Part shown: one piece after another, positions 19,895 through 51,704 of the stretch
Numbering within the stretch: position 1 is the stretch's first letter
How the letters are laid out: every line of letters starts with the position of its first letter
The notes under the pieces: model-generated
What the model saw: only the letters and a program-made list of their open reading frames with translations
The model's database searches: none
Told to the model about the DNA's origin: nothing
Made by a program: the position numbers and the translations under genes
IMG/VR virus record: IMGVR_UViG_3300032293_001706
Span: 32,001-96,000 of that record
Length of the DNA: 64,000 nucleotides
Source of the DNA: a virus
Reading direction: 5' to 3' (one strand)

Positions 19895-21451
19895 TTAGTT
19901 TTTAAAAAAATCATACCAATAATTATATGTCTTTAAATCATTAGGTGTCCCCCAACATATGTAATTTTCGACTTCAAAAACTTTAACTTTTAATCCTGTC
20001 TCAACACATCTATTTATAACATCGTCAACATAAAATTCATTATTAGTCTTTTTATTATCGGACTTATTTAGTAATAATCCATCTAAAAAATATTTACTTT
20101 TTCTAAAAAACATGGTTCCAACAATTGCATGTGTTTTTAATGGATTATCGTATATAAATTTTTTACACGATACTGATTTTATAAAATTATCAGAATCAAC
20201 TTCTAACCAAGCATAATCATTTGGGTTTTGTTTACTTGATTGATTATTTCTGAATGACCAAACAATAACATCTATATTTATATCGTCTAATAATGTTTGT
20301 AATTTTTTAGAATCGTAATAAATTCCATTGTCACTTGCGGATATTAAAATAGGTAAATCCGGATTTAAATTATTTTCATTAATACCTATTTCACAAGTAA
20401 TTGCTTGACCTTCGGTTACCCCTGATATTGTTGTTATTTTAACATTATCAAAATAGTTTGGTATTATTTTATCAATTTTATACTTATCAAAATGTTCTTT
20501 TTGACATATAAAAATTTTATTATTTGTTTTTGGTAAACATTTTACAGCTTCAACCACCATAAAAGAATCATTTACTGATAATAGTGGTTTAGGCGTTTCA
20601 TAACCATTTATAAAAAATCTACTACCTAAACCCGCCATCGGTAAAATTAGTGTGGTATTTATTGGACAAATTGATGGTTCAAAAATCTGTTTTACTTTTT
20701 TAAAATAGTTTGACCATCCCTTGTAAATTTCTAAATCATATGGTGTTCCCCATTGTAGCATCTTTTCAATTTCAAAAACGCCAACATTAAGACCGTCTCG
20801 TATCATTAAATTATAAACTAAACTAACATAATATTCACCATTTATATTTATGTTAGAATCAATTAATTCTTGGAAATACTTTTTTACGAGTTTACCTGAC
20901 TTAAAATAATATGTACCATTTGATGCGAATTCATTCATTCTATTATTAGTAAATGGTTGCTTTTCTCTAATTTCTGTAACTAAATTATTTTCCACATTAC
21001 AAAATGCATAATTATCAGAACCTAACATATGAGGGTGAAATCCAATATAACAAGGTATTAAACCATCATAAATTTTTGTTTCACTTATAAATTTTTTAAA
21101 ATCCCAAACAGTTCCATAATCACAATAACTTAGAATTATTTCTTTATTTTCATCAATTTCATCAAATATTTTAGACACACTAAAAACGGGACCTTTTTTT
21201 AAATTATCAGGTATTTCTATAATTTTTGAAGTCGGACATATTCTCTTTAAAATTTGAGACATGTCTGTTGTCTCTAAATGAGTTTTATTACAAATAAAAA
21301 TTACATCTGTAATTCCTGGGAATAAGTTTAAAACATGTTCAATAATTGGTTTACCATCGACCTCAATCAGAGGTTTCGGTTCACTATATCCACCATCTAA
21401 GAATCTTTTACCAATACCTGACATAGGTATTATTAATTGTATGTTTTTCAT
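19895..21451 (-). CDS. Tandem (two-domain) sugar-phosphate nucleotidyltransferase
   Basis: Two copies of the signature: IPMSGIGKRF..PKPLI and LPMAGLGSRF..PKPLL; each domain ends with WGTP.DL. Confidence 0.88.
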   Translation of the reverse strand: MKNIQLIIPMSGIGKRFLDGGYSEPKPLIEVDGKPIIEHVLNLFPGITDVIFICNKTHLETTDMSQILKRICPTSKIIEIPDNLKKGPVFSVSKIFDEIDENKEIILSYCDYGTVWDFKKFISETKIYDGLIPCYIGFHPHMLGSDNYAFCNVENNLVTEIREKQPFTNNRMNEFASNGTYYFKSGKLVKKYFQELIDSNININGEYYVSLVYNLMIRDGLNVGVFEIEKMLQWGTPYDLEIYKGWSNYFKKVKQIFEPSICPINTTLILPMAGLGSRFFINGYETPKPLLSVNDSFMVVEAVKCLPKTNNKIFICQKEHFDKYKIDKIIPNYFDNVKITTISGVTEGQAITCEIGINENNLNPDLPILISASDNGIYYDSKKLQTLLDDINIDVIVWSFRNNQSSKQNPNDYAWLEVDSDNFIKSVSCKKFIYDNPLKTHAIVGTMFFRKSKYFLDGLLLNKSDNKKTNNEFYVDDVINRCVETGLKVKVFEVENYICWGTPNDLKTYNYWYDFFKN

Positions 21452-21912
21452 TAATCTTTATTTTTTTCTATTTCAAATATAAAATCTGTACAGACACCAT
21501 AAACATTATTTAATAAATCGGTGTTTATATCGGATAAATTAATCATTGGTATGATATCGTTTTTTGTTAGATTTGATTTTAAGTTATGAACCCATAAATG
21601 ATGAGTACTTGTCAATGTAAAATCGTCACCATTATGACAAAAAAATTTGAAATTACTGTTTATTTTATTCAGATTATTAGCAGATTCTTTGTTTTTACAA
21701 TGAAACCAAATATATTCCGCTCGTTTTAACATCCAACTAAGTTCAATTTTATATTGTGGAAAATCATGACCTAGCCAAAATTCACCATTAATAAATCTAA
21801 TATCGGCTTCAACTTCATACCCTAATTGAATTGCACAATCAATGTAACTAGGTCTATTTTCTTTTTCAGGTATTGGTCCGTTTACATTACCTCTATGGGA
21901 TATTATTTTCAT
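21451..21912 (-). CDS. GDPD/PLC-like phosphodiesterase
   Basis: MKIISHRGN, GYEVEADI, LGHD, WFHCKN, GVCTDF. Confidence 0.8.
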   Translation of the reverse strand: MKIISHRGNVNGPIPEKENRPSYIDCAIQLGYEVEADIRFINGEFWLGHDFPQYKIELSWMLKRAEYIWFHCKNKESANNLNKINSNFKFFCHNGDDFTLTSTHHLWVHNLKSNLTKNDIIPMINLSDINTDLLNNVYGVCTDFIFEIEKNKD

Positions 21913-22208
21913 ATTTCCTCGATTCTAATTGTTTTATCATCAATAAATAAGTCATAATAGGGTTTATCAACCCTCAATTCATGAAATTTAACACCCCATT
22001 CATTTAATTGTTTATAGGTTAAATCATACCAATCAATTTGTTTTCTACTACCTCTTGCGGTCCAATAAACTATTGTATGTCCTTCATCATATAATTGATT
22101 TATTTTTTCTATATTCTTATATATCGGTGAGGCGTTTTCATATTTTCGGTCTTTAGATGTTTCACAAATAGTTTCATCTATATCAACGTAGATTACCTTT
22201 AAATTCAT
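21909..22208 (-). CDS. Small HAD phosphatase (capsule-biosynthesis type)
   Basis: VDIDETIC, YWTARG, KPYYDLFIDDK. Confidence 0.82.
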   Translation of the reverse strand: MNLKVIYVDIDETICETSKDRKYENASPIYKNIEKINQLYDEGHTIVYWTARGSRKQIDWYDLTYKQLNEWGVKFHELRVDKPYYDLFIDDKTIRIEEI

Positions 22209-22924
22209 ATTATTTTTATGTTTTCATTTATATCACCAAATAAGTTATTGAACTCTACATAATACCTATCAATTTCTTCTCGATGATTTTTTTGATTAAT
22301 ACCCATATAATTTAAATAATCTGTTTCATAATTAATACCACCATCTATTGTACAATTTTTGAGATGTCCTATATTATTATTTGTAAATCTTGATATTGTG
22401 TGTATTTTAAATTTTAAATTTGGATATTTTTCTTTTATAATATCTTGTAACTCATATGGTATTGAATTATAACGTACTAGAATAAAGTCAATAAAATTAT
22501 CACCATTTAGATAATTTCTGAAACTATTAATTCTTGTATTATATCTTTGTATGAAATTATTAAAATTATTTTCAACAAAATGAAAAGGATTGGACCACCG
22601 TTCATTTAAATATAAATTACCGTGATATGGGGATTCATGGTTAAATACAAAATTATAATACGTATTATAAATCCATACTTCATCATCTTTTTGATTGGGA
22701 ATATGTATCCCCATTTTAGGAGCTGAACGTAATTCCAAATAATTAGGATTACAAAAATATTCAAAATCATCTTTAATACATTCACAAAGACCAATGTAAT
22801 TCGATATCATCATGTCAAATGGACAAGTATTATACCCATCAGATTTATTTTTTCTTAAACCCAATAATAATCCTTCCTGAGCCGCAGAACAATTCCAACC
22901 TAAACTTATTCCAACTTTATTCAT
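22205..22924 (-). CDS. DUF1796-like putative papain-like protein
   Basis: ISLGWNC..CPFD.M..F.H E S..RY.RI..F pattern. Confidence 0.65.
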   Translation of the reverse strand: MNKVGISLGWNCSAAQEGLLLGLRKNKSDGYNTCPFDMMISNYIGLCECIKDDFEYFCNPNYLELRSAPKMGIHIPNQKDDEVWIYNTYYNFVFNHESPYHGNLYLNERWSNPFHFVENNFNNFIQRYNTRINSFRNYLNGDNFIDFILVRYNSIPYELQDIIKEKYPNLKFKIHTISRFTNNNIGHLKNCTIDGGINYETDYLNYMGINQKNHREEIDRYYVEFNNLFGDINENIKII

Positions 22925-23592
22925 ATTAATGATTTCCTATATTTTTCTTTTTCATCGTTTAATAGACTTTTTATGTCTTTATCAGTGAGAAAATTTATTC
23001 CTGATGTGCTTAAATATATTTCTGCTGATTTTTCACAAATGTCTGATACTATTGAGCATTCTTCAATTGTTGAACCACAGGCAATAATACCATGATTTTG
23101 TAATAAAATTAATTTTGGAAAAGTATTATTTTCATTAATGAATTGATTTACTTGTTTTTGAATTAATTGAGTTAATTCGTCACCGGGTTTTGCATAAGGT
23201 ACAACACATGACTTTTCTCCATTAAAAATTACTTGGTCTGGAAATATACGTTTATTTGCAAATTCCAAAAAATTACTACTTGAAAGGATTGAAAGTGTTT
23301 TAGTTGGATGAGTATGTGAAATAAAATTTATGTTTCTGTGTTTTAATAAAAAAATATGAAAACCTAACTCCATACTACCTCTTTTTTCTAAATTATCTAT
23401 TTGATTTCCGTTGAAGTCGAATTTTACTAAATCATTTGAAGTTAAATTATAGAGACATTTGCCACTCGCTTTAATATAAAAGGTTTCTCCGTCTTTCCCT
23501 GAAATATTACCCTCCATACCAACACAATATTTACTTACCCGTTTAGATAGTTTAAGTAGTTTTATAATTATATTATCTTTAACTGTTTTCAT
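22921..23592 (-). CDS. Class II aldolase/adducin-family enzyme (likely start 23592)
   Basis: EGNISG, IKASG, SMELGFH, HTHP, ILLQNHGIIACG. Confidence 0.85.
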   Translation of the reverse strand: MKTVKDNIIIKLLKLSKRVSKYCVGMEGNISGKDGETFYIKASGKCLYNLTSNDLVKFDFNGNQIDNLEKRGSMELGFHIFLLKHRNINFISHTHPTKTLSILSSSNFLEFANKRIFPDQVIFNGEKSCVVPYAKPGDELTQLIQKQVNQFINENNTFPKLILLQNHGIIACGSTIEECSIVSDICEKSAEIYLSTSGINFLTDKDIKSLLNDEKEKYRKSLI

Positions 23593-23620
23593 TTTTATAT
23601 GAAAAAATAAGAAAAAAAAA

Positions 23621-25075
23621 TTAATCAGTAAAGTTGATATGAAAAATAAAATAAAGTATATAATCATAAAAACTTTTTGTTTTATTATCCTTTAAAAAGT
23701 CGTTATTTTCAAAATTAAGGTCTGTGTATTCATCAAAAATAATACTTGTAAATTTATAATCTTTATTTATAGTATAATTTATGTTTGATGTGTTAAAAAC
23801 ATCCATAACCGTTTTTAAGTTTTTACAATCTGACCTAATTAATAACTCTAAACTTAATGATTCTTGATTATATAAATCAGTAAAATCTATTGTATTTTTA
23901 CTAAAAAATCGTACTATGATGTCAGCATTTTCTTTTTGAGGCTTAATATAATCATTAAAATCTTTTTGTCTTTTTTTAATGTTTTCCAATACTTTATTAG
24001 GACTATACCCTCTTTCTAAAACATCGCGCTTAATCTTCCACTTTTTTTTCAAATTTTCATCAGTATCCATAAAAATTTTCAAGTCGTAAAGATTGGTATT
24101 ACCATACAAACTATGTAACCCACATACAATTAGATTATCTGACGGGTTAATTAATTTCTTTTCGGTAAACTTACCACTGTGGTGGTCATAATCTACTTGA
24201 TATATATCATTACCTAATTTTAAATTGAAAATATCTTCTTCCATTTTAGTAATATAATTTGATTTTGGATTTAAATGAGTGGTTTGTTCCCAATTTTTAT
24301 TATTCCTTTCCCATTTATGGTATCTATCACACTCCAAAGTAAAAGAATTATTATAACAATTTTTTAATAACCTACTTAATGTTGATTTTCCAGACCCCGA
24401 ATCACCACAAATTGCAAAAATATTACACTTAGATAGTAGAAAATTATATTCTATATCCAATTTTTTAAATGATATGTTTGTTTTTTTTAAATACTCAAAT
24501 AATGATGTTTCAGATACGGGTAAAAAGAAATTACCATAAAATTTATAAATATCAAAATATTTATCCATAATTTTTGACTTACCAAAGGCAAATGCGTCAC
24601 AAAGATAACCATCATTGGAATTTGTAAGTCTGAATTTATCCATTTTAGCATCTGACGGTATATAAATTATATTGTCTTCGACTACAATATCAAAAATATT
24701 TTTAGTTAATATGTTTAAATCTAATCTATATCTTATTACTAAATCATATTCAGATGATTCAGATTCTCTTATAGTTTTTATTTCATTAAGTTTGTATAAC
24801 TTAGCCCAAAGATTAATAACGTTATTAATTTTATTATCACTAACATATGTTTGATTGTTTTCAACAATTGTTGTTATTGGATTAAGAATGTCTACTATTT
24901 TTTTTATATCAGAATCTTCTATTTGATTTAAATATTTATCATCGGTATTTTCACTTTTTGTGATATGTAAATAAACATCAACAGTTTTAAATTTTTTTAC
25001 AATTTCATTTACTATGAATTCAATACTTTTTTCGTAGTTCCTTAAATATCCAGCAATTAATAATGCAACTCTCAT
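23621..25075 (-). CDS. Fusion: putative glycosyltransferase N-terminus + phosphoribulokinase/uridine kinase-family C-terminus
   Basis: N: MRVALLIAGYLR..YDLVIRYRLD..DAFAFG. C: ICGDSGSGKST, YDHHSG, GLHSLY, WKIKRDVLERG, DFNDYIKPQ..ADIIV. Confidence 0.8.
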   Translation of the reverse strand: MRVALLIAGYLRNYEKSIEFIVNEIVKKFKTVDVYLHITKSENTDDKYLNQIEDSDIKKIVDILNPITTIVENNQTYVSDNKINNVINLWAKLYKLNEIKTIRESESSEYDLVIRYRLDLNILTKNIFDIVVEDNIIYIPSDAKMDKFRLTNSNDGYLCDAFAFGKSKIMDKYFDIYKFYGNFFLPVSETSLFEYLKKTNISFKKLDIEYNFLLSKCNIFAICGDSGSGKSTLSRLLKNCYNNSFTLECDRYHKWERNNKNWEQTTHLNPKSNYITKMEEDIFNLKLGNDIYQVDYDHHSGKFTEKKLINPSDNLIVCGLHSLYGNTNLYDLKIFMDTDENLKKKWKIKRDVLERGYSPNKVLENIKKRQKDFNDYIKPQKENADIIVRFFSKNTIDFTDLYNQESLSLELLIRSDCKNLKTVMDVFNTSNINYTINKDYKFTSIIFDEYTDLNFENNDFLKDNKTKSFYDYILYFIFHINFTD

Positions 25076-25078
25076 AAA

Positions 25079-25966
25079 TTAAATTCCTTCGAATACATTT
25101 TGATTTTTACTTATCATATCATTTAATATATTTATAAGTTTTGAATTATTAAATATTTTATTGTAAAAATAATCATAATTGTTAATAACATCAAGAGTTT
25201 TAGTCGGTATTTCGTTGTAATCTGCCCAAATTATGAACTCGTTATATGGTATCTTTTCTTTTAACGGAACATCTTCGCTAACAATAATAACTCCATTACT
25301 TAATGCTGGTAAAACCCGCAGTTCTTCAAAAGTATGATGATGGTCTGTCTGATGTATATTAACCATAATTTTTGTTTTACTATATAAATCTAATAAACAC
25401 TCATTTGAAAAACAATTAGTAATTGTTGTGTTATTAACACCTAACTCATTTATTTGTGATAAAATATTCTTACGCCTAATGTTAGAACTCGTATCAAATA
25501 ATGTTATTACTTTAGATTTTTCACCATTAAATTTAGGGTCATATATTGTTGGTGATATATAAAGTACTTTTGATAGAAAGTTTTGAAACTTACCACATGA
25601 TTTTATATTTTCAATATTAGGTAAACTATATTCTATGATATAATCTAATGAATTAAGATAGTTAAATTTATCAATTCGTACTAAATAATAACTATCTTTA
25701 TTTTTTATGTTGCCGTAAATTTTATCGTTTACGGACCGACCACCTTCTTTTACGAGAGTATGTTCACATTGTATGTCAATTTTTAATGTTTTGTTATTAT
25801 TTTTAAAATCAAAAAAGTAATCACCAAAAATAATATTAAAACTTTCATCACATTCTGATAACCAATTTTTTAATAATTTAACAATATAGTTATAATATTC
25901 CCTAGTATGAATAACTTGGTTATCGGTGTAGAGTAAAAAACTTTTATTAATTTTCTCAATTATCAT
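25079..25966 (-). CDS. GT-B-like glycosyltransferase (CgeB/DUF3880-like C-terminus)
   Basis: KIMVNIHQ..FEELRVLPALSNGVIIVSE. Confidence 0.55.
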   Translation of the reverse strand: MIIEKINKSFLLYTDNQVIHTREYYNYIVKLLKNWLSECDESFNIIFGDYFFDFKNNNKTLKIDIQCEHTLVKEGGRSVNDKIYGNIKNKDSYYLVRIDKFNYLNSLDYIIEYSLPNIENIKSCGKFQNFLSKVLYISPTIYDPKFNGEKSKVITLFDTSSNIRRKNILSQINELGVNNTTITNCFSNECLLDLYSKTKIMVNIHQTDHHHTFEELRVLPALSNGVIIVSEDVPLKEKIPYNEFIIWADYNEIPTKTLDVINNYDYFYNKIFNNSKLINILNDMISKNQNVFEGI

Positions 25967-26754
25967 CTATCTACAGTTCGTTCCGTTTTTTGCTGTGCTC
26001 TTTTAACAAAGAAAGTTTTAATATTATCATCAAAAGGATTTACTGAATGACAATCATATTTTGGGTCTGGATTAGGGTTATTATTCCACATATAACCTAA
26101 GTATCTTATATCGCCATCAATATCATAATTCTTATGGTCATTCAATTCCCATATAATTCTAGCTAAATATCTTTCCGCTGCGCAACTTTGAGTTCTATTT
26201 GTTATCACAATCTGTTTAAAATAATCATAAGTCCTTTCAACGTTTAATGATGATATTATAAAACTACAACACCAACAAAAAGTACATTTATCTAAATTAT
26301 CTAATAGCCCCAATTTTAATAAAATTTCATTGGATATGTCTTGTAACATGCCGTCTTGAAAGTATGAATTAATTGTACAAGCTTTAATGTTTTCATTATA
26401 GAGAGTGTTAAAATCCAATTTATTTTTTAAAATAAATGTATCTTGTGTTAATACAATGTAAGAATATTCATTTATTAATGAATTATCTATTAAAAATTTC
26501 AAACCGATTTGATAAGCCCCAATTTCAAATTTACATTCTATATCATTTTCTAATAACACGACATTTTTATATTTTCTTAAATTTGCAAATATATCCTCTT
26601 TATACGTTGAATTATTATCTACGAAAATAATAAGTGCGTCTTCGTAGAATTTTTGTATAGTCTGCACATAATATTCACTATATGAATCATATCCTCTATA
26701 GTATTTATGAGCGATTATAAAAACTGGTTTGTTGATATTTTTAATTATTTCCAT
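25963..26754 (-). CDS. Putative glycosyltransferase
   Basis: FVDNNS, KFEIGAY, LTQDTF; inside the glycosylation cluster. Confidence 0.45.
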   Translation of the reverse strand: MEIIKNINKPVFIIAHKYYRGYDSYSEYYVQTIQKFYEDALIIFVDNNSTYKEDIFANLRKYKNVVLLENDIECKFEIGAYQIGLKFLIDNSLINEYSYIVLTQDTFILKNKLDFNTLYNENIKACTINSYFQDGMLQDISNEILLKLGLLDNLDKCTFCWCCSFIISSLNVERTYDYFKQIVITNRTQSCAAERYLARIIWELNDHKNYDIDGDIRYLGYMWNNNPNPDPKYDCHSVNPFDDNIKTFFVKRAQQKTERTVDR

Positions 26755-27554
26755 TTACTTGAATTTTTTAAATTATATTTATTTACTATTTTTTCGTATT
26801 CATATTTTATATCATCACACGAACCAATAGGTAACGTTTCAATGTTTAAATATTTTTGACTGTGTGTTATGTGAATGTACCTAAATGGTTCCAAACAAAT
26901 AAAATAACCACATTTAAATTTATTTTTTGAAAAAAGTTTAAAGATATTAAAGTTAACTGCATATTTCTGTGTATCAGGGTGTTCGATTGTTCTATAATCT
27001 CTGAAACCAAATTTTTCCATAATATCGATTAACGTCTCTTTCTTCCAAATCGATGGATTAACATTATATGGGTATCCTTTATTTTCAGTATCTATATTTG
27101 ATGATTTTATGTAATATAAATCATTATCATTTATTTCGTGACTCTTAATACTATCAAAATCGTAGGCTAATTGAAAATCAACTCTGTCGTAATTATTTTC
27201 ACGTAAAAAGTTAAACATACTTTTAATTTTTTCTTTATCAATATAAAATACAATATCATTATCATGTATGAAAATAAAATAATCATACGGAACGTCTTTA
27301 ATTGTATTTAGTAATCTATATCCATACGGTAACGAATCATCGTAAAAAATAACTTTTTCAAAATTATTATAAATACCACTAAGGTCATCGTCATTTTTAT
27401 TTATGATTAAAATCATCTCCCCACAATCTTTCAAATAATCAATTTGTATTTTTAATACTTCTAAGAAAGAAGAATGACTATAAATAACAATCTTTAAATT
27501 ATTATCAAGCGGTTTATCAGACAATTCAAATTTTTTTATATCAAATGTTATCAT
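26745..27554 (-). CDS. Putative GT-A-like glycosyltransferase (paralog 1)
   Basis: YSHSS, IFIHDND, YNVNPSIWKKETL, YRTIE, CGYF.C; paralog of 28476-29240. Confidence 0.5.
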   Translation of the reverse strand: MITFDIKKFELSDKPLDNNLKIVIYSHSSFLEVLKIQIDYLKDCGEMILIINKNDDDLSGIYNNFEKVIFYDDSLPYGYRLLNTIKDVPYDYFIFIHDNDIVFYIDKEKIKSMFNFLRENNYDRVDFQLAYDFDSIKSHEINDNDLYYIKSSNIDTENKGYPYNVNPSIWKKETLIDIMEKFGFRDYRTIEHPDTQKYAVNFNIFKLFSKNKFKCGYFICLEPFRYIHITHSQKYLNIETLPIGSCDDIKYEYEKIVNKYNLKNSSKWK

Positions 27555-47218: not shown

Positions 47219-48772
47219 TTAAATTTGGCTACTTTTTTCGAACACGTAATTTCCGTCAATTATTTTTGTTGAATTGTTTTTGAAAACAATAGTTGTATCG
47301 CCATTATTGAACGCAATATAATCTGTTGTATATTTTTTAGGATTACTAACACCATATATAACAACTTCGTTATATGAAAACTTCCTGATAGATGAAAAAG
47401 GTTTTATTTGTATGGTCTTTTCAACACCATTTTCAATAACAATTGCATCAACCCCTGAAATCATATCTTGTTCACTACCCAAACCACCAATTTTTTTTAC
47501 TTCATCGGTGTTAAATATTTTTTTAAGTTGAATTATTGTGTTATCTTCTCTAATATCACCCAACCTATTTGTTTGTTTTAGTTTTTCAAAAATTTCTTGA
47601 AAGGTTTTTGAAGTTTCAAGATTGAATATTCTATTTTTTAATAACTCCAAATAGTTACAAAATCTTTCAACTTCTTTTATTTGTTGTTGCTTATCTGATG
47701 GTGAAAATGAAATTTTTTCCTTATTTACGGATTTTAAATAAACATTTAAGTCGTTCATTAATATACAGAACGCACTATAGTTTGTGTTAAGTTTATTTAT
47801 AACTGACCGTCCTTTTGATTCAAAATCATATATACCTGACATTGAATTGGTTTCATATTCTCCCTTTTCTTTCCAATATTCAGGAAAAACATCTTTCAAA
47901 ATACTGTTTATGGTATGCATAAACTTATATTTTACTTCAGGGTTAGTTGAAAACAATTTATTTATTTCTTTTGTTTGTGTTGAGTTACATCCCATACTTT
48001 CTCTTGATTCACTTATAATTTGTTTGTAAGACTTTGATTCTTTTATTTCTTTTTCGGTTTTTGACAAATATAACGAATTTACGAATTCCCAGTTTATTGC
48101 GGAAAAGAAATTTTTAACATATTCATCTCTTTTGTTTTGGTATTTTAAATAATATGCATGTTCCCACAAATCTAAACCTAAAATAGGAAAACCACCGTCT
48201 TCAACAATGTTCATTAAAGGATTATCCTGATTTGGTGTTATAACAATTTTTAATTTACCACTTTTTGATATTATTAACCAACACCAACCTGAACCAAAAT
48301 TTGATGATGCTTTTTCTATAAAACTTTTCTTAAATTCGTTATAAGAACCAAAATCTTTTTTTATTCTTTCCAAGACCTCACCCTTAATGGTTTGTTTTGT
48401 TGGTGATAACATTTTCCAAAAAAGAGCGTGATTAAACGCACCACCAGCATTATTCCTAACAATTTTATTAAATCTTGAAATACTTCTTATGATTTCTTCA
48501 AGGTCCATATCAGACCTTTTAATATTTTCAATTGCTTTGTTTAACTTTTCAACGTATCCCTTATAATGTCTATTATAGTGAATATTCATTGTCTTAGGGT
48601 CAACAAATCTTAATAATGATGAATATGAATATGGTAACTTTTCGATACCAATTTTTTTCATTTCATTTAGAATTTCTTTTTGTTGGGTGTGTAATTCCTC
48701 TGAAAGATTTTCTTTACCTTCCAAAATTGTTTGAATTTCTTCAATTTCCAAATCTAACTTTTTAAGTTCCAT
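47219..48772 (-). CDS. sod: Fe/Mn superoxide dismutase fused to a C-terminal domain of unknown function (likely start 48772)
   Basis: LPYSY..L, HYNRHYKGY, NNAGGAFNHALFW, FGSGW, NQDNP, DLWEHAYYLKY; ~270 aa extra C-terminal region. Confidence 0.9.
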   Translation of the reverse strand: MELKKLDLEIEEIQTILEGKENLSEELHTQQKEILNEMKKIGIEKLPYSYSSLLRFVDPKTMNIHYNRHYKGYVEKLNKAIENIKRSDMDLEEIIRSISRFNKIVRNNAGGAFNHALFWKMLSPTKQTIKGEVLERIKKDFGSYNEFKKSFIEKASSNFGSGWCWLIISKSGKLKIVITPNQDNPLMNIVEDGGFPILGLDLWEHAYYLKYQNKRDEYVKNFFSAINWEFVNSLYLSKTEKEIKESKSYKQIISESRESMGCNSTQTKEINKLFSTNPEVKYKFMHTINSILKDVFPEYWKEKGEYETNSMSGIYDFESKGRSVINKLNTNYSAFCILMNDLNVYLKSVNKEKISFSPSDKQQQIKEVERFCNYLELLKNRIFNLETSKTFQEIFEKLKQTNRLGDIREDNTIIQLKKIFNTDEVKKIGGLGSEQDMISGVDAIVIENGVEKTIQIKPFSSIRKFSYNEVVIYGVSNPKKYTTDYIAFNNGDTTIVFKNNSTKIIDGNYVFEKSSQI

Positions 48773-48800
48773 TACTATAAATAATTGAATTATTGAAAAG

Positions 48801-51704
48801 TTATCTTTTTTGATTAATTCTATCCATAATTTCTCCAACAATTTCAGCTCTATCTAAGTTATCACCCATAACAGTTGCAATGTTTTGTTTTTTGGTATTA
48901 ACAATATCATATATTATCCCTTCAATCGCGTTCTCGAAAATTGGATAGTATACGGATACTGAATTTTTTTGACCATAACGATAAGCTCTATCTTCCGCCT
49001 GAGCCATATCACCAGGAACAAAAGAAAGGTCATTCATTATTACCGCTTCCCCAGCAGTTAATGTTATTCCAACTCCTGCGGCTTTCATATTACCAATAAA
49101 GATTTTTATCTTATCATCTGTTTGAAACCTATCTACCGCTTCTTGTCTTTGTTTTGGTGAACAAGAACCATTCAAATAAACAGAATTTTTTGAATAATGA
49201 TTATGAAGAGATTCTAATGTTTCTGTAAAATTGGTGAAAACAATAACTTTTTTATCCTGTTCGATAATATTATCAATTAATTCTATCGTTGAATTGATTT
49301 TTTCTTTTGCAATTACTTGTCTTACTTTTGTAAGTTTTGTGAACTGAACGGTTAGTGATGAACTTTCATCGGGGTTTTTATCATACCAATCATAATATTC
49401 TCCCATTAAACTTTCATATTCTTTAGATTTTAATCTTAGGTAAACTGGTGTTATTATTTTTTCAGGAAGGTCCAAGATATCCGTTTTTAATCTTCGTAAT
49501 ACTTGTCTTGACGTTCTATCTCTTAATTCCTCAAGGTTAGATGCTCCAGTGACATTCCATATTTTTCTATTACCAACTTTAAACTGATAACCATCACAAT
49601 ACCTTTTTACATATGCCATCCAATTTGATGCTACGGGTGATTCCACCAAATTTAAAAGATTATAATAGTTAATTGGTCTTGATGTCATTGGAGTTCCTGT
49701 TAATAACCAAAGTCTATCAACATCTTTCACAAAACTATTAATTAATTTGGTTCTCTTTGCCAAACTATTCTGTACATAGTGAGCCTCATCAATAATTATT
49801 AAATCAAAATTACTTTTTAATATTAAGGATTCTTGATTTTTTTCCGTACTGTGGAAGTTTTTAACTATGTCGTAATTCATAATTACAAAATCCGCATCTT
49901 CATATTTTTTACCTTCACAAATATATACTGACCTATCACTATAGTTTTGAATTTCCCTTTGCCAATTAATCTTTAAAGATGCGGGACATATAATTAAAAT
50001 TTTCTTTGCTCCTGTTTCTAATGCCGCAACAATTGTTGAAGTTGTATTATGAGTTACAATACAATGTTCTGTAACGTATAACTTATCAGGAGAGTCAACT
50101 GAAATACAAACCGCATCCCCTCTACCTTCGAGTTGTATATCTTTAATATACCTTCCAACTTTGTATTTATTAGGGGAGTTATATAATTTACACTTTCGTT
50201 CAAGTTTGAATGGGTTCATACCACTAGGTAATTTTATATTAACCCTATAGGATTTTTTACCCTTTTTTTTAACTCCATTATGAGTATAATTTGTTATTCT
50301 ATCTTTTTTTCTAGCAATCCCCCCTAAACTATGAACAATTTCAATTACGTCATCACATAGTTTTTCAGATGTTGTGCTAAATTCAGTTCCTCTGAACTCA
50401 CCATTTTTACTAACATAACAAGTCCCATCAGTATCCATTAAACCTTTTAAAAGTTCTAATCTATCATTAATTGAAGAATATTTATACGCATCAGGAATAA
50501 ATTTATTATATGAACCACAACCCATTAAATTTAATTTTTTCAAAATTTGTATTACTGGATTAGTAAGTCCTGCTTCTTTTATAATTTTATACCCATATTT
50601 TGAATTTACTTTTTCAATTATCCGTGAATTTTCAGGTAAAACTTGTTTTATATAATTAATAATTTCATAATCTTTAGTTGTAAAAGAAATACTTTTTTGA
50701 GTTATACCACCATCTCCTAAGATTAACCCCAACAAGTAAGGATTTAACTCTAATTCACGTGACACAAACTCAATCGGTTTAACCATTGGTATTTGCCATT
50801 TGTTATTACCACCTTTATTTTTAAAATAAGTTTTAAATTTATATTTTCTATTATTGTTATTTTTTTCACCTAATACTTCTAAGGCTAACTCTTTATCTAG
50901 CATATCGCCTACGGATAATACAATCTCTTTTTTTCTACGAGAGTTATTAGTGTTAATCCCAAAACTGTTTGACATGACCGAAAATAAATGTTCTTTACAG
51001 ACTAAAATAGAAACCCCATCATTGAATGATACTCTGTATAAATCTTTAACCCCTTGTGGGTAAACACCTAAAACTTTACACTTTTTACCATTACTACCAA
51101 TAACTTCATCACCAATTTTTAAATCACCAATTTTTTTTCTACCGTATGGGGTAAATACCATATTTTCAACAAACTCGGCTTTTCCAGCACCCATATCGTC
51201 TGCCAAAATAAATCTTTTGGTTCTTACTAAACGATTAACCGCTTCTATTTGATGTTTTAATGGAGGTCTATGGGAATACTTTGAAAAATCAATTTCTTTG
51301 TAATACTCTTCAGGGTTTTTAATAATCGCAACTTTTGGAATCCAAATATCCGTCAAAGGTTCACTTTCAAAAAATTTACCCCATATATGATAAGATTTTT
51401 CTTTTTCAACCAATAATTTTTCAACCCAAATTTTGTTAGGAGGATTGGTATATAATTTTTCATTTGCAATTTTTTCTGAAAAATATGAATCCAATTCAAC
51501 CCACTTCTTTGCAATTTTTGGTGTTATATTATGAAAGTTTATTATATACTCTGATTGACTTCTTGTTATTTCTTTACTCTTATTAGGTCCGAAAAGTGAT
51601 TTTAATCTTAATATATAGTTATTTGCACCATTATAACTCTCTAAAATTTTAAGAGCTTTTTTTTCAAAAACATTTATAGACGACGATTCGATGTTGTCTG
51701 ACAT
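48801..51704 (-). CDS. SNF2-family helicase containing an intein
   Basis: LADDMGAGK/T Walker A split by the intein, IIDEAH, LLTGTP, GVGITLT, QAEDRAYRYGQ. Confidence 0.92.
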   Translation of the reverse strand: MSDNIESSSINVFEKKALKILESYNGANNYILRLKSLFGPNKSKEITRSQSEYIINFHNITPKIAKKWVELDSYFSEKIANEKLYTNPPNKIWVEKLLVEKEKSYHIWGKFFESEPLTDIWIPKVAIIKNPEEYYKEIDFSKYSHRPPLKHQIEAVNRLVRTKRFILADDMGAGKAEFVENMVFTPYGRKKIGDLKIGDEVIGSNGKKCKVLGVYPQGVKDLYRVSFNDGVSILVCKEHLFSVMSNSFGINTNNSRRKKEIVLSVGDMLDKELALEVLGEKNNNNRKYKFKTYFKNKGGNNKWQIPMVKPIEFVSRELELNPYLLGLILGDGGITQKSISFTTKDYEIINYIKQVLPENSRIIEKVNSKYGYKIIKEAGLTNPVIQILKKLNLMGCGSYNKFIPDAYKYSSINDRLELLKGLMDTDGTCYVSKNGEFRGTEFSTTSEKLCDDVIEIVHSLGGIARKKDRITNYTHNGVKKKGKKSYRVNIKLPSGMNPFKLERKCKLYNSPNKYKVGRYIKDIQLEGRGDAVCISVDSPDKLYVTEHCIVTHNTTSTIVAALETGAKKILIICPASLKINWQREIQNYSDRSVYICEGKKYEDADFVIMNYDIVKNFHSTEKNQESLILKSNFDLIIIDEAHYVQNSLAKRTKLINSFVKDVDRLWLLTGTPMTSRPINYYNLLNLVESPVASNWMAYVKRYCDGYQFKVGNRKIWNVTGASNLEELRDRTSRQVLRRLKTDILDLPEKIITPVYLRLKSKEYESLMGEYYDWYDKNPDESSSLTVQFTKLTKVRQVIAKEKINSTIELIDNIIEQDKKVIVFTNFTETLESLHNHYSKNSVYLNGSCSPKQRQEAVDRFQTDDKIKIFIGNMKAAGVGITLTAGEAVIMNDLSFVPGDMAQAEDRAYRYGQKNSVSVYYPIFENAIEGIIYDIVNTKKQNIATVMGDNLDRAEIVGEIMDRINQKR
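50046..51179 (-). mobile_element. Ala1 (class 3-like) intein with LAGLIDADG endonuclease, 378 aa
   Basis: Starts AEFVENMVFTP.G, ends AVCISVD..LYVT..IVTHN followed by Thr+1; LLGLILGDG and LLKGLMDTDG motifs. Confidence 0.9.

Follow-up and report, generated by a model that had tools for sequence, protein, structure and literature searches.

A phosphoribulokinase-like kinase in a putative sugar-activation gene cassette of a T4-like lake phage

The DNA analysed here, referred to as the window, comprises 64,000 nucleotides (bases 32001-96000) of a 190.5 kb IMG/VR record, IMGVR_UViG_3300032293_001706, which is estimated to be 63% complete and comes from a T4-like phage of a lake. The assignment to the T4-like myophages follows from the gp23-type capsid protein, tail sheath, family B DNA polymerase and PhoH encoded in the window, across which the G+C content varies from 23 to 37%. 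The subject of this work is a cassette of six genes at positions 19895-25075, the first of which carries a kinase domain resembling phosphoribulokinase (PRK). An earlier note on this DNA had placed a class II aldolase or epimerase, a DUF1796-like protein, a HAD phosphatase, a GDPD-like enzyme and a two-domain nucleotidyltransferase beside a fusion of a glycosyltransferase (GT) with the kinase. All six open reading frames (ORFs) are indeed present on the minus strand (Table 1), with overlaps or gaps of 7 nt at most. No terminator-like site was found on the minus strand within 19895-25075, and promoter-like matches in this region occur at chance level. It can reasonably be inferred from the tight packing that the genes are co-transcribed. 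About 25 genes follow one another on the minus strand here (approximately 15.2-36.7 kb), a series that encloses the cassette and includes about 10 glycosyltransferase-like genes.

Table 1. Cassette genes and domains and the associated GT61-like gene, in positions of the window.
Feature	Position	Strand	Basis
GT-A-fold domain (DUF7796-like), residues 1-213 of the 484-residue fusion	24437..25075	-	predicted fold
PRK-like P-loop kinase domain, residues 214-484 (stop codon included)	23621..24436	-	profiles, fold, residues, tree
Class II (FucA-type) aldolase-family enzyme, 223 residues	22921..23592	-	PF00596, conserved residues
DUF1796 protein, accessory	22205..22924	-	PF08795
Capless HAD phosphatase, 99 residues	21909..22208	-	phrog_1238, motifs
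Minimal GDPD-fold protein, 153 residues	21451..21912	-	fold and motifs
Tandem nucleotidyltransferase, 518 residues: NT-A (1-262) and NT-B (263-518)	19895..21451	-	PF00483, GlmU models
GT61-like glycosyltransferase	29237..30451	-	PF04577, 63.5 bits

The kinase forms the C-terminal part of the fusion protein (25075-23621) and matches PF00485 with 120.6 bits at residues 219-396 (gathering cut-off, 22 bits). Its best curated family is the type II PRK model NF005655 (188.2 bits, E = 2.1e-55), which has a cut-off of 236 bits that is not reached. The type I PRK model gave 48 bits, and both uridine kinase models were missed (NF004018, 81 bits against a cut-off of 180; TIGR00235, 68 bits against 220). 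Solved cyanobacterial and archaeal PRKs were matched at E values between 3.5e-31 and 1.9e-29, compared with 4e-9 for a uridine kinase. The AlphaFold2 (AF2) model aligned with 9qko, a structure described as a 'cyanobacteria-specific PRK', over 261 residues at a Z score of 22.7, and with uridine kinase over 190 residues at 16.0; the former alignment takes in the C-terminal sheet of PRK, which is lacking in uridine kinases. The motifs to which the earlier note had drawn attention, GDSGSGKST, GLH, WKIKRDVLERG and YIKPQKENAD, were all located in the fusion sequence.

Structural studies of PRK have named a catalytic Asp/His dyad as well as the residues by which the 5-phosphate of ribulose 5-phosphate (Ru5P) is held (PMC5241800, PMC9978339). 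Based on the residue lists of MhPRK (H55, R59, Y98, H100, K151 and R154) and RsPRK (D42, D169 and R173), the equivalents in the fusion are D250, H253, R257, Y296, H298, K347, R350, D351 and R355, and these are invariant or nearly so among 138 family representatives. The same Ru5P-site residues are common to the PRKs of cbb-type clusters from Allomeiothermus silvanus, Mycobacterium intracellulare and Sinorhizobium meliloti. The uridine kinase Udk of E. coli and Pseudoalteromonas has Y, Q, Y and R where the window kinase has H253, R257, H298 and K347. The Walker-B Glu, part of an EGLH motif, is Glu in all four aligned reference PRK and Udk sequences, whereas it is replaced by Cys318 in the window kinase, by Cys in 62 of the 66 GT-A-type members of the family and by Ser or Cys in most of the membrane-type members. 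The P-loop cysteine of the redox pair of photosynthetic PRK is a serine in the window kinase.

A maximum-likelihood tree was built with two cbb-type type II PRKs, one type I PRK and two Udk sequences as references; cyanobacterial and plant PRKs were compared only through the searches of solved structures. A branch with 100% support parted Udk from the PRKs and the cassette kinases, so that no grouping with uridine kinases was seen. The two type II cbb PRKs paired (87%), and all cassette kinases fell beyond a branch with 89% support. The type I PRK had a very long branch and was placed unreliably among the cassette kinases. Profiles, solved structures, fold and acceptor-site residues thus agree with the earlier proposal that the kinase is closer to PRK than to uridine kinase, and its sequence places it on the PRK side of the PRK/uridine kinase family.

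The AF2 model of the fusion has a mean pLDDT of 83.6. In a wide fold search, the N-terminal domain aligned with BoGT6a over 191 residues (Z = 12.7, root-mean-square deviation (rmsd) 3.6), and many other GT-A glycosyltransferases matched at Z scores of 10-12.5, among them hyaluronan synthase, Mnn9 and SpsA at 11.5-12.5, with alignments that span residues 1-213 or beyond. Nucleotidyltransferases of the same fold are nearly as close (Z of about 10.5). A homolog of this domain gave a weak match to DUF7796 (28.4 bits). At the position after strand 4 that is usually occupied by DxD, the domain has R117-x-D119, and both residues are invariant. In the cyanophages S-SM2 and Bellamy the domain is free-standing.

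The aldolase-family enzyme matches PF00596 with 97 bits. Its ORF can be read from 23667, but the true start is probably Met26 (23592) because all homologs begin there. The extra 25 codons (23593-23667) are hydrophobic and of low complexity, overlap the end of the kinase gene and are probably an artefact of ORF calling. G28, N29, G44, S73, E75, H93, H95 and N166-H167-G168 do not vary among 22 members from phages and bacteria, and the full FucA-type zinc, acid/base and phosphate-binding site is kept. The earlier note had pointed out that class II aldolases include ribulose-5-phosphate 4-epimerase; the enzyme does not resemble AraD more than it resembles aldolases, and the nearest solved structures are FucA-type ketose-1-phosphate aldolases. 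The family profile matched FucA (E between 1e-19 and 5e-15), OtnC (1e-14), MtnB (8e-10) and RhaD (7e-5), and no chain bearing the name L-ribulose-5-phosphate 4-epimerase was among the solved-structure matches at E ≤ 1e-4. The AraD model TIGR00760 was missed (25.4 bits against a cut-off of 389), and the enzyme also scored far below the cut-offs of TIGR01086 (40.6 against 400) and of the ribulose-1-phosphate (Ru1P) aldolase model NF053831 (42.1 against 300).

The small HAD protein matches phrog_1238 (E = 1.8e-30), and its score against the capsule phosphatase model TIGR01689 (33.5 bits) is below the cut-off. Motifs I-IV are visible as D9-x-D11-x-T13, T50, K82 and D90-D91, and the cap domain is absent. 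BT0820 and PNKP-HAD were matched weakly. A methionine-salvage-like scheme, with an MtnB dehydratase and an MtnC enolase-phosphatase, was considered for the aldolase and HAD pair and rejected, as MtnB is more distant than FucA and the phage HAD is capless.

No Pfam family, PF03009 included, matched the 153-residue protein at E ≤ 0.01. Its AF2 model (pLDDT 95.2) had GDPDs as the top Foldseek matches, and the top 22 rows of a wide fold search were all of the GDPD family, with Z scores of 8.9-10.8 and 141-149 of the 153 residues aligned. The best of these matches had a Z score of 10.8 and an rmsd of 3.2-3.3 over 146-148 residues. The HRG, EN, ExD and HD residues of GDPDs are invariant in the family (H6, R7, E18, E35, D37, H49 and D50), and the barrel is shortened (153 residues compared with about 240). 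Tests at the sequence level were weak: hhalign gave a probability of 58% over 40 columns with a bacterial GDPD-like family, and the E value to the Protein Data Bank entry 1zcc was 0.77. The protein is therefore assigned, on its predicted fold and its motifs, to a minimal form of the GDPD fold.

The N-terminal half of the 518-residue nucleotidyltransferase matches PF00483 (29.7 bits; cut-off, 21.2) and, weakly, IspD. GlmU N-domain models align with both halves, at residues 6-240 and 267-499. NT-A and NT-B are 28% identical, and both carry PM(S/A)GxGxRF...KPL. NT-B has the full canonical set (GxGxR, K, GQ, D, K and EFYVDD), whereas in NT-A the Gln that contacts the base and the second metal Asp are missing. 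From phages to bacteria, each half keeps a conservation pattern of its own, and in three bacterial metagenome-assembled genomes (MAGs) the two are separate adjacent genes.

To follow these parts, loci were scanned with purpose-built profiles: six viral loci seeded with the kinase, 47 viral loci seeded with the nucleotidyltransferase, three bacterial MAGs, and plasmids of Hirschia baltica and E. coli. Twenty-five of the viral loci seeded with the nucleotidyltransferase extend for 6 kb or more on either side and are called well-flanked here. The kinase and a GDPD-like protein were found in all 25, the aldolase in 22, the HAD in 19 and a GT61-like gene in 23. The GDPD slot is filled by the 153-residue form in 12 of the loci and by a bacterial-type form of about 200 residues in 13; because the two never occur together, they were treated as equivalents. 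Fusions tie the parts to each other in pairs or larger sets: GT-A and kinase in 30 ORFs, HAD and aldolase in eight, NT-A, NT-B and HAD in two, GDPD, NT-A and NT-B in one, GT61-like and GDPD in one, and kinase and aldolase in two loci and three cluster representatives. Domain identities, the conservation of catalytic residues, gene co-occurrence and fusions are direct observations on these sequences, and co-occurrence in about 55 loci together with the pairwise fusions supports the view that the cassette is one functional module. About 50 viral loci, four bacterial ones and an E. coli plasmid harbour the set.

Three well-flanked loci lack the aldolase. In two of them (L022, 7658-8428, and L049), an unrelated ORF of 256 residues follows directly after the kinase gene; the third is L050. 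The possibility that the 256-residue ORF of L022 is a diverged aldolase was rejected (hhalign probability 0.1%; no Pfam match), and it may be a non-homologous replacement.

The DUF1796 protein (PF08795, 41.3 bits against a cut-off of 23) had been counted by the earlier note among the cassette genes. It is present in the window, but it is accessory, since it was found in only three of about 55 loci (the window, L003 and L005) and its slot is often occupied by a TylF-type O-methyltransferase. Seventeen other ORFs within cassettes encode such a methyltransferase, which in several loci stands between the kinase and the aldolase. The GT61-like gene lies about 4 kb upstream of the six genes in the window; in S-SM2 and Bellamy it stands between the aldolase and nucleotidyltransferase genes, and in L029 it is fused to the GDPD-like domain. 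This glycosyltransferase likely uses the product of the cassette.

Relatives of the window fusion are numerous: 1,524 proteins were found at E ≤ 0.001. The best 120 of these had at least 65% query coverage (mostly 98-100%) and 50-80% identity, and the longest of their contigs measured 343 kb. When the kinase domain served as the query, 480 sequence clusters were returned at E ≤ 1e-30; of these, the best 150 all had cassette-type architectures or were fragments. Four architectures were seen: GT-A and kinase, membrane GT-C (GT87-like) and kinase, kinase and class II aldolase, and methyltransferase and kinase. Cassette kinases occur in phages of 17-55% G+C, in contigs binned as giant viruses, in Gracilibacteria, Bacillota and Alphaproteobacteria, and on an E. 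coli plasmid.

The bacterial sets (Gracilibacteria, Bacillota, Hirschia and an E. coli IncR plasmid) adjoin GtrA, a GT2 of about 234 residues and membrane transferases of the PMT or GT87 type, and the bacterial GT-C domain is fused to the kinase. Judged by this gene content, their setting is a Gtr-like lipid-carrier glycosylation. The earlier note had held that trios of nucleotidyltransferase, HAD and GDPD-like protein occur in bacterial capsule loci; such trios do occur in bacterial glycan loci, but these are Gtr-like rather than classic capsule loci. The whole bacterial cassette is found as one operon on the 33 kb IncR plasmid NZ_CP145712.1 of an E. coli strain from human stool (L065, 4481-13443), with genes for a tandem nucleotidyltransferase, GtrA, GT2, a GDPD-like protein, a kinase with a membrane domain, HAD, aldolase and a 586-residue protein without an assigned family. 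Among 5,426 complete E. coli genomes, two carried the cassette, both on plasmids of about 33 kb; the second copy is identical and comes from a bullfrog isolate.

A search of about 50,000 records of isolate phages found the tandem nucleotidyltransferase only in two Synechococcus phages (four records), and single-domain relatives in other Synechococcus phages and one uncultured phage contig from human faeces. S-SM2 and Bellamy carry the GT-A domain, the aldolase, the HAD, the GDPD-fold protein, the GT61-like gene and the tandem nucleotidyltransferase, and a PF00485 domain is absent throughout their complete genomes. The hosts of these two phages make ribulose 1,5-bisphosphate (RuBP) themselves, in bulk. 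The missing kinase would thus fit RuBP as the entry metabolite. In both phages, a small cupin annotated as 'cysteine dioxygenase' lies within about 2 kb of the cassette (S-SM2, L001 6222-6599; Bellamy, L002 5630-5980). The cupin of S-SM2 directly adjoins a second HAD. The presence of the cupin in the two phages brings to mind methionine salvage, with its trio of dehydratase, enolase-phosphatase and dioxygenase; the window has no counterpart.

That the cassette is not a Calvin-cycle gene set, as the earlier note maintained, is supported by its surroundings. The large subunit of RuBisCO (PF00016) had no match in the phage record, the three bacterial MAGs or the Hirschia plasmid, and psbA was not found in the phage record. 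The reference PRKs of cbb-type clusters lie beside RuBisCO (A. silvanus) or beside rpe, tkt or FBPase genes (M. intracellulare and S. meliloti). Two of these clusters were met on plasmids: in A. silvanus (L014, 8983-9951) a Calvin-cycle-type cluster contains PRK, RuBisCO, CbbX, Rpe, Fba and Tkt, and in M. intracellulare (L066, 5950-6894) it contains rpe, tkt, prk, HAD and fba. Both species are known as heterotrophs.

Several other genes of the window are of interest in their own right. Midway through the glycosylation operon (34305-35601), a gene that matches dUTPase (87 bits), with a weaker dCTP-deaminase-like match, is accompanied by a PolB-exonuclease/RNase H-like gene. The 307-residue protein encoded at 27551-28474 matches the C-terminal domain of RXYLT1 weakly (E = 1.6e-4, below the cut-off); in dystroglycan glycosylation, RXYLT1 is the ribitol-phosphate xylosyltransferase. 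No family match at all was obtained for four neighbouring genes (25079-27554 and 28476-29240). The gene of an SNF2-family helicase (48801-51704) holds LAGLIDADG homing-endonuclease domains between the helicase motifs, with Hom_end and Hint-associated matches below cut-off, and this insertion looks like an intein. A 540-residue ORF (47219-48841) holds a complete Fe/Mn superoxide dismutase (residues 66-256), and its C-terminal 280 or so residues have no family match.

Taken together, the reading towards which we lean is that the six genes and the GT61-like gene divert Ru5P into a nucleotide-activated five-carbon sugar for glycan synthesis and not into carbon fixation. The PRK-like domain would make RuBP by phosphorylating Ru5P, or a closely similar ketose phosphate, at C1. 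The small HAD would then take off the 5-phosphate, leaving a ketopentose 1-phosphate that is able to close as a furanose, and the FucA-type zinc enzyme would most likely change the configuration of this ketose 1-phosphate by a retro-aldol/aldol or an enediolate route. The GDPD-fold protein and the two nucleotidyltransferase domains would turn the phosphate ester into a nucleoside diphosphate (NDP)-sugar, either an NDP-pentose or an NDP-pentulose, which the fused GT-A-fold domain and the GT61-like enzyme would pass to a glycan made by the phage or present on the host surface. From the gene set we infer the substrate, the sequence of the steps, which sugar is made and what is glycosylated. A precedent for the middle of the scheme exists in haloarchaea, where a HAD strips the 5-phosphate from RuBP to give cyclised Ru1P, on which a FucA-type enzyme then acts (PMC9700705). 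Because three well-flanked loci have no aldolase, it is suggested that this enzyme tailors the sugar and is not needed for activation. The earlier note had spoken of a ketopentose or polyol-phosphate donor; a ketopentose donor is plausible, and the lack of a recognised reductase in the cassette makes a polyol-phosphate donor less likely. The general idea of the note, a PRK-led sugar-activation module outside the Calvin cycle, thus holds up in the main, with corrections to the type of the aldolase, the type of the bacterial loci and the role of DUF1796.

Several observations weigh against the diversion of Ru5P as outlined. With 188 bits, the kinase stays short of the curated PRK cut-off of 236, and the replacement of the Walker-B Glu by Cys or Ser means that its chemistry may differ. 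Nucleotidyltransferases normally act on anomeric phosphates, and a ketose 1-phosphate is not one. The scheme as it stands accounts neither for two nucleotidyltransferase domains nor for a phosphodiesterase-fold protein, and the GT-A domain lacks a canonical DxD motif. With the aldolase absent from three and the HAD from six of the 25 well-flanked loci, a linear series of five steps cannot hold everywhere. The argument from the cyanophages is based on two genomes.

A phosphodiester-linked decoration is an alternative that we regard as unlikely. Here an NDP-linked ketopentose phosphate or polyol phosphate (compare CDP-ribitol and CDP-glycerol) would be moved as a sugar-phosphate unit, and the GDPD-fold protein or the GT-A-fold domain would handle the phosphodiester. 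IspD and TarI are nucleotidyltransferases of the same fold that activate non-anomeric primary phosphates, and the N-terminal half of the 518-residue protein has its weak IspD match. A phosphodiesterase-fold protein in every well-flanked locus, a GT-A domain without DxD, and the neighbouring gene whose match to the C-terminal domain of RXYLT1, from a ribitol-phosphate-related family, stays below the cut-off (E = 1.6e-4) would also be in keeping with it. However, the cassette without a recognised reductase makes a polyol unlikely, and the GtrB-like GT2, GtrA and GT-C proteins that accompany the bacterial versions usually move sugars rather than sugar phosphates. The use of lipid carriers and GT-C enzymes by the bacterial versions, which points to envelope glycans, argues against a donor that serves hypermodification of the phage DNA, for example glycosylation of a hydroxymethylated base. 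The dUTPase-match gene (87 bits) and the PolB-exonuclease-like gene of the same long operon would suit such a role, but genes of the thymidylate-synthase/hydroxymethylase family were not found in the 190 kb record (63% complete), and about 10 glycosyltransferase-like genes go far beyond the needs of DNA glycosylation; we consider this use of the donor quite improbable.

The kinase, HAD and aldolase could instead form a catabolic shunt, in which Ru5P is converted via RuBP and Ru1P to dihydroxyacetone phosphate and glycolaldehyde, and energy metabolism is fuelled during infection. The same three enzyme families act in the same order in haloarchaea (PMC9700705), and the aldolase has a complete FucA-type site. 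Nevertheless, such a shunt is very improbable: the three enzymes are always tied, also by fusion, to nucleotidyltransferases, the GDPD-fold protein and glycosyltransferases, the aldolase reaches 42 bits where the Ru1P aldolase model demands 300, and the ATP spent on splitting Ru5P would presumably duplicate the pentose-phosphate and glycolytic routes. That the kinase is an ordinary uridine/cytidine kinase, or an auxiliary gene of the Calvin cycle, is hardly credible. Pipelines do label homologs 'uridine kinase', and the domain falls within PF00485; the PRK-specific residues are present and those of Udk absent, the Udk models reach 68-81 bits against cut-offs of 180-220, and Udk splits off in the tree with 100% support. 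As regards the Calvin cycle, neither RuBisCO nor psbA was found in the phage record, and the redox cysteine of the P-loop is Ser.

Within the diversion of Ru5P to a sugar donor, a more specific route can be imagined, to which we attach little probability: the cassette might lead to nucleotide-activated ketopentofuranoses such as xylulofuranose (Xulf). Speculatively, the PRK-like domain would phosphorylate O1 of the ketopentose, the HAD would free O5 for furanose closure and NT-A would make the NDP ester. The GDPD-fold enzyme, by chemistry like that of PI-PLC, might then let the anomeric O2 attack the phosphate, so that a nucleoside monophosphate leaves and a 1,2-cyclic phosphate forms. The same enzyme might open the cyclic phosphate to the ketofuranose 2-phosphate, from which NT-B could make an NDP-ketofuranose donor. 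If true, this migration of phosphate from O1 to O2 would give a reason for the presence, in every well-flanked locus, of two nucleotidyltransferase domains and a phosphodiesterase-fold protein. Xulf is present in the O95 and O97 antigens of E. coli, and the mechanism of its donation was stated as not known (PMC7685785). It also occurs, sometimes methylated, in the N-glycans of the chloroviruses MT325 and TN603 (PMC9614988), and the methylated form fits the frequent TylF-type methyltransferases of the cassette. No support was gained from E. coli itself, as the Wzx/Wzy locus of the carrier strain S1-CAM-01-A is of the O35 type and not that of O95 or O97.

PRK has been regarded as a hallmark enzyme, both for the Calvin cycle and for one pathway of archaea (PMC9978339, PMC5241800). 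A large and distinct PRK clade wired into glycan biosynthesis would be a new role for this Calvin-cycle enzyme type. Since homologs are annotated by the source pipelines as 'uridine kinase' or 'phosphoribulokinase', phage copies can be miscounted as auxiliary genes of carbon fixation. Searches of the literature for this combination of genes turned up no publication that describes the cassette. Its product, once worked out, would define a new nucleotide-sugar pathway and might explain how ketopentoses come to be part of O-antigens and viral glycans. The E. coli IncR plasmid offers a whole bacterial cassette in one operon, ready for work at the bench.

Of the known systems, the PRKs themselves are the closest to the kinase. 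The fold, including the C-terminal sheet, is common to the cassette kinase and the dimeric plant/cyanobacterial and archaeal enzymes (6hzk, 6kev and 5b3f; 9qko/9qkn), as are the catalytic Asp/His dyad, all residues that bind the phosphate of Ru5P and the GDSG P-loop of type II PRKs. The cassette kinase differs from PRK in its score below the curated cut-off, the Cys or Ser of its Walker-B motif and the lack of the redox Cys in the P-loop. In the genomes examined, it is always fused to or adjoins glycan enzymes and is never found with RuBisCO, and in the tree the cassette kinases stand outside the pair of type II PRKs from cbb operons (87-89% support).

The logic of the proposed pathway resembles that of NDP-glycero-manno-heptose synthesis, which employs GmhA, the HldE/HddA kinase, the GmhB HAD phosphatase and the HldE/HddC nucleotidyltransferase. 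In both, a kinase makes (or, in the cassette, would make) a bisphosphate, a small HAD drops the distal phosphate and a nucleotidyltransferase activates the phosphate that remains. The phage HAD family phrog_1238 even bears the name of the isomerase of the heptose pathway, though the protein is a HAD. Unlike the heptose pathway, the cassette has a kinase of the PRK family rather than of PfkB or GHMP, no SIS isomerase and a presumed five-carbon starting sugar, and it adds a class II aldolase-family enzyme, a GDPD-fold protein and a second nucleotidyltransferase domain. Haloarchaea's non-carboxylating pentose bisphosphate pathway shares with the cassette a HAD and a FucA-type enzyme downstream of RuBP, a pair that is fused in eight viral ORFs. 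However, the haloarchaeal pathway is catabolic and starts from nucleosides via a ribose-1-phosphate kinase and a ribose-1,5-bisphosphate isomerase, neither of which is in the cassette (PMC9700705). The cassette goes on to nucleotidyltransferases and glycosyltransferases, and its aldolase is far from the Ru1P aldolase model (42 bits against 300).

Gtr-type glycosylation, with its GtrA flippase, GtrB GT2 and GT-C enzyme, is the nearest counterpart of the bacterial cassettes, which carry GtrA, the GT2 of about 234 residues and a GT87-like membrane domain. The fusion of the GT-C domain to the kinase in these cassettes is not known for Gtr systems. The phage cassette differs from Gtr in having none of those parts, and carries soluble GT-A-fold and GT61-like enzymes instead.

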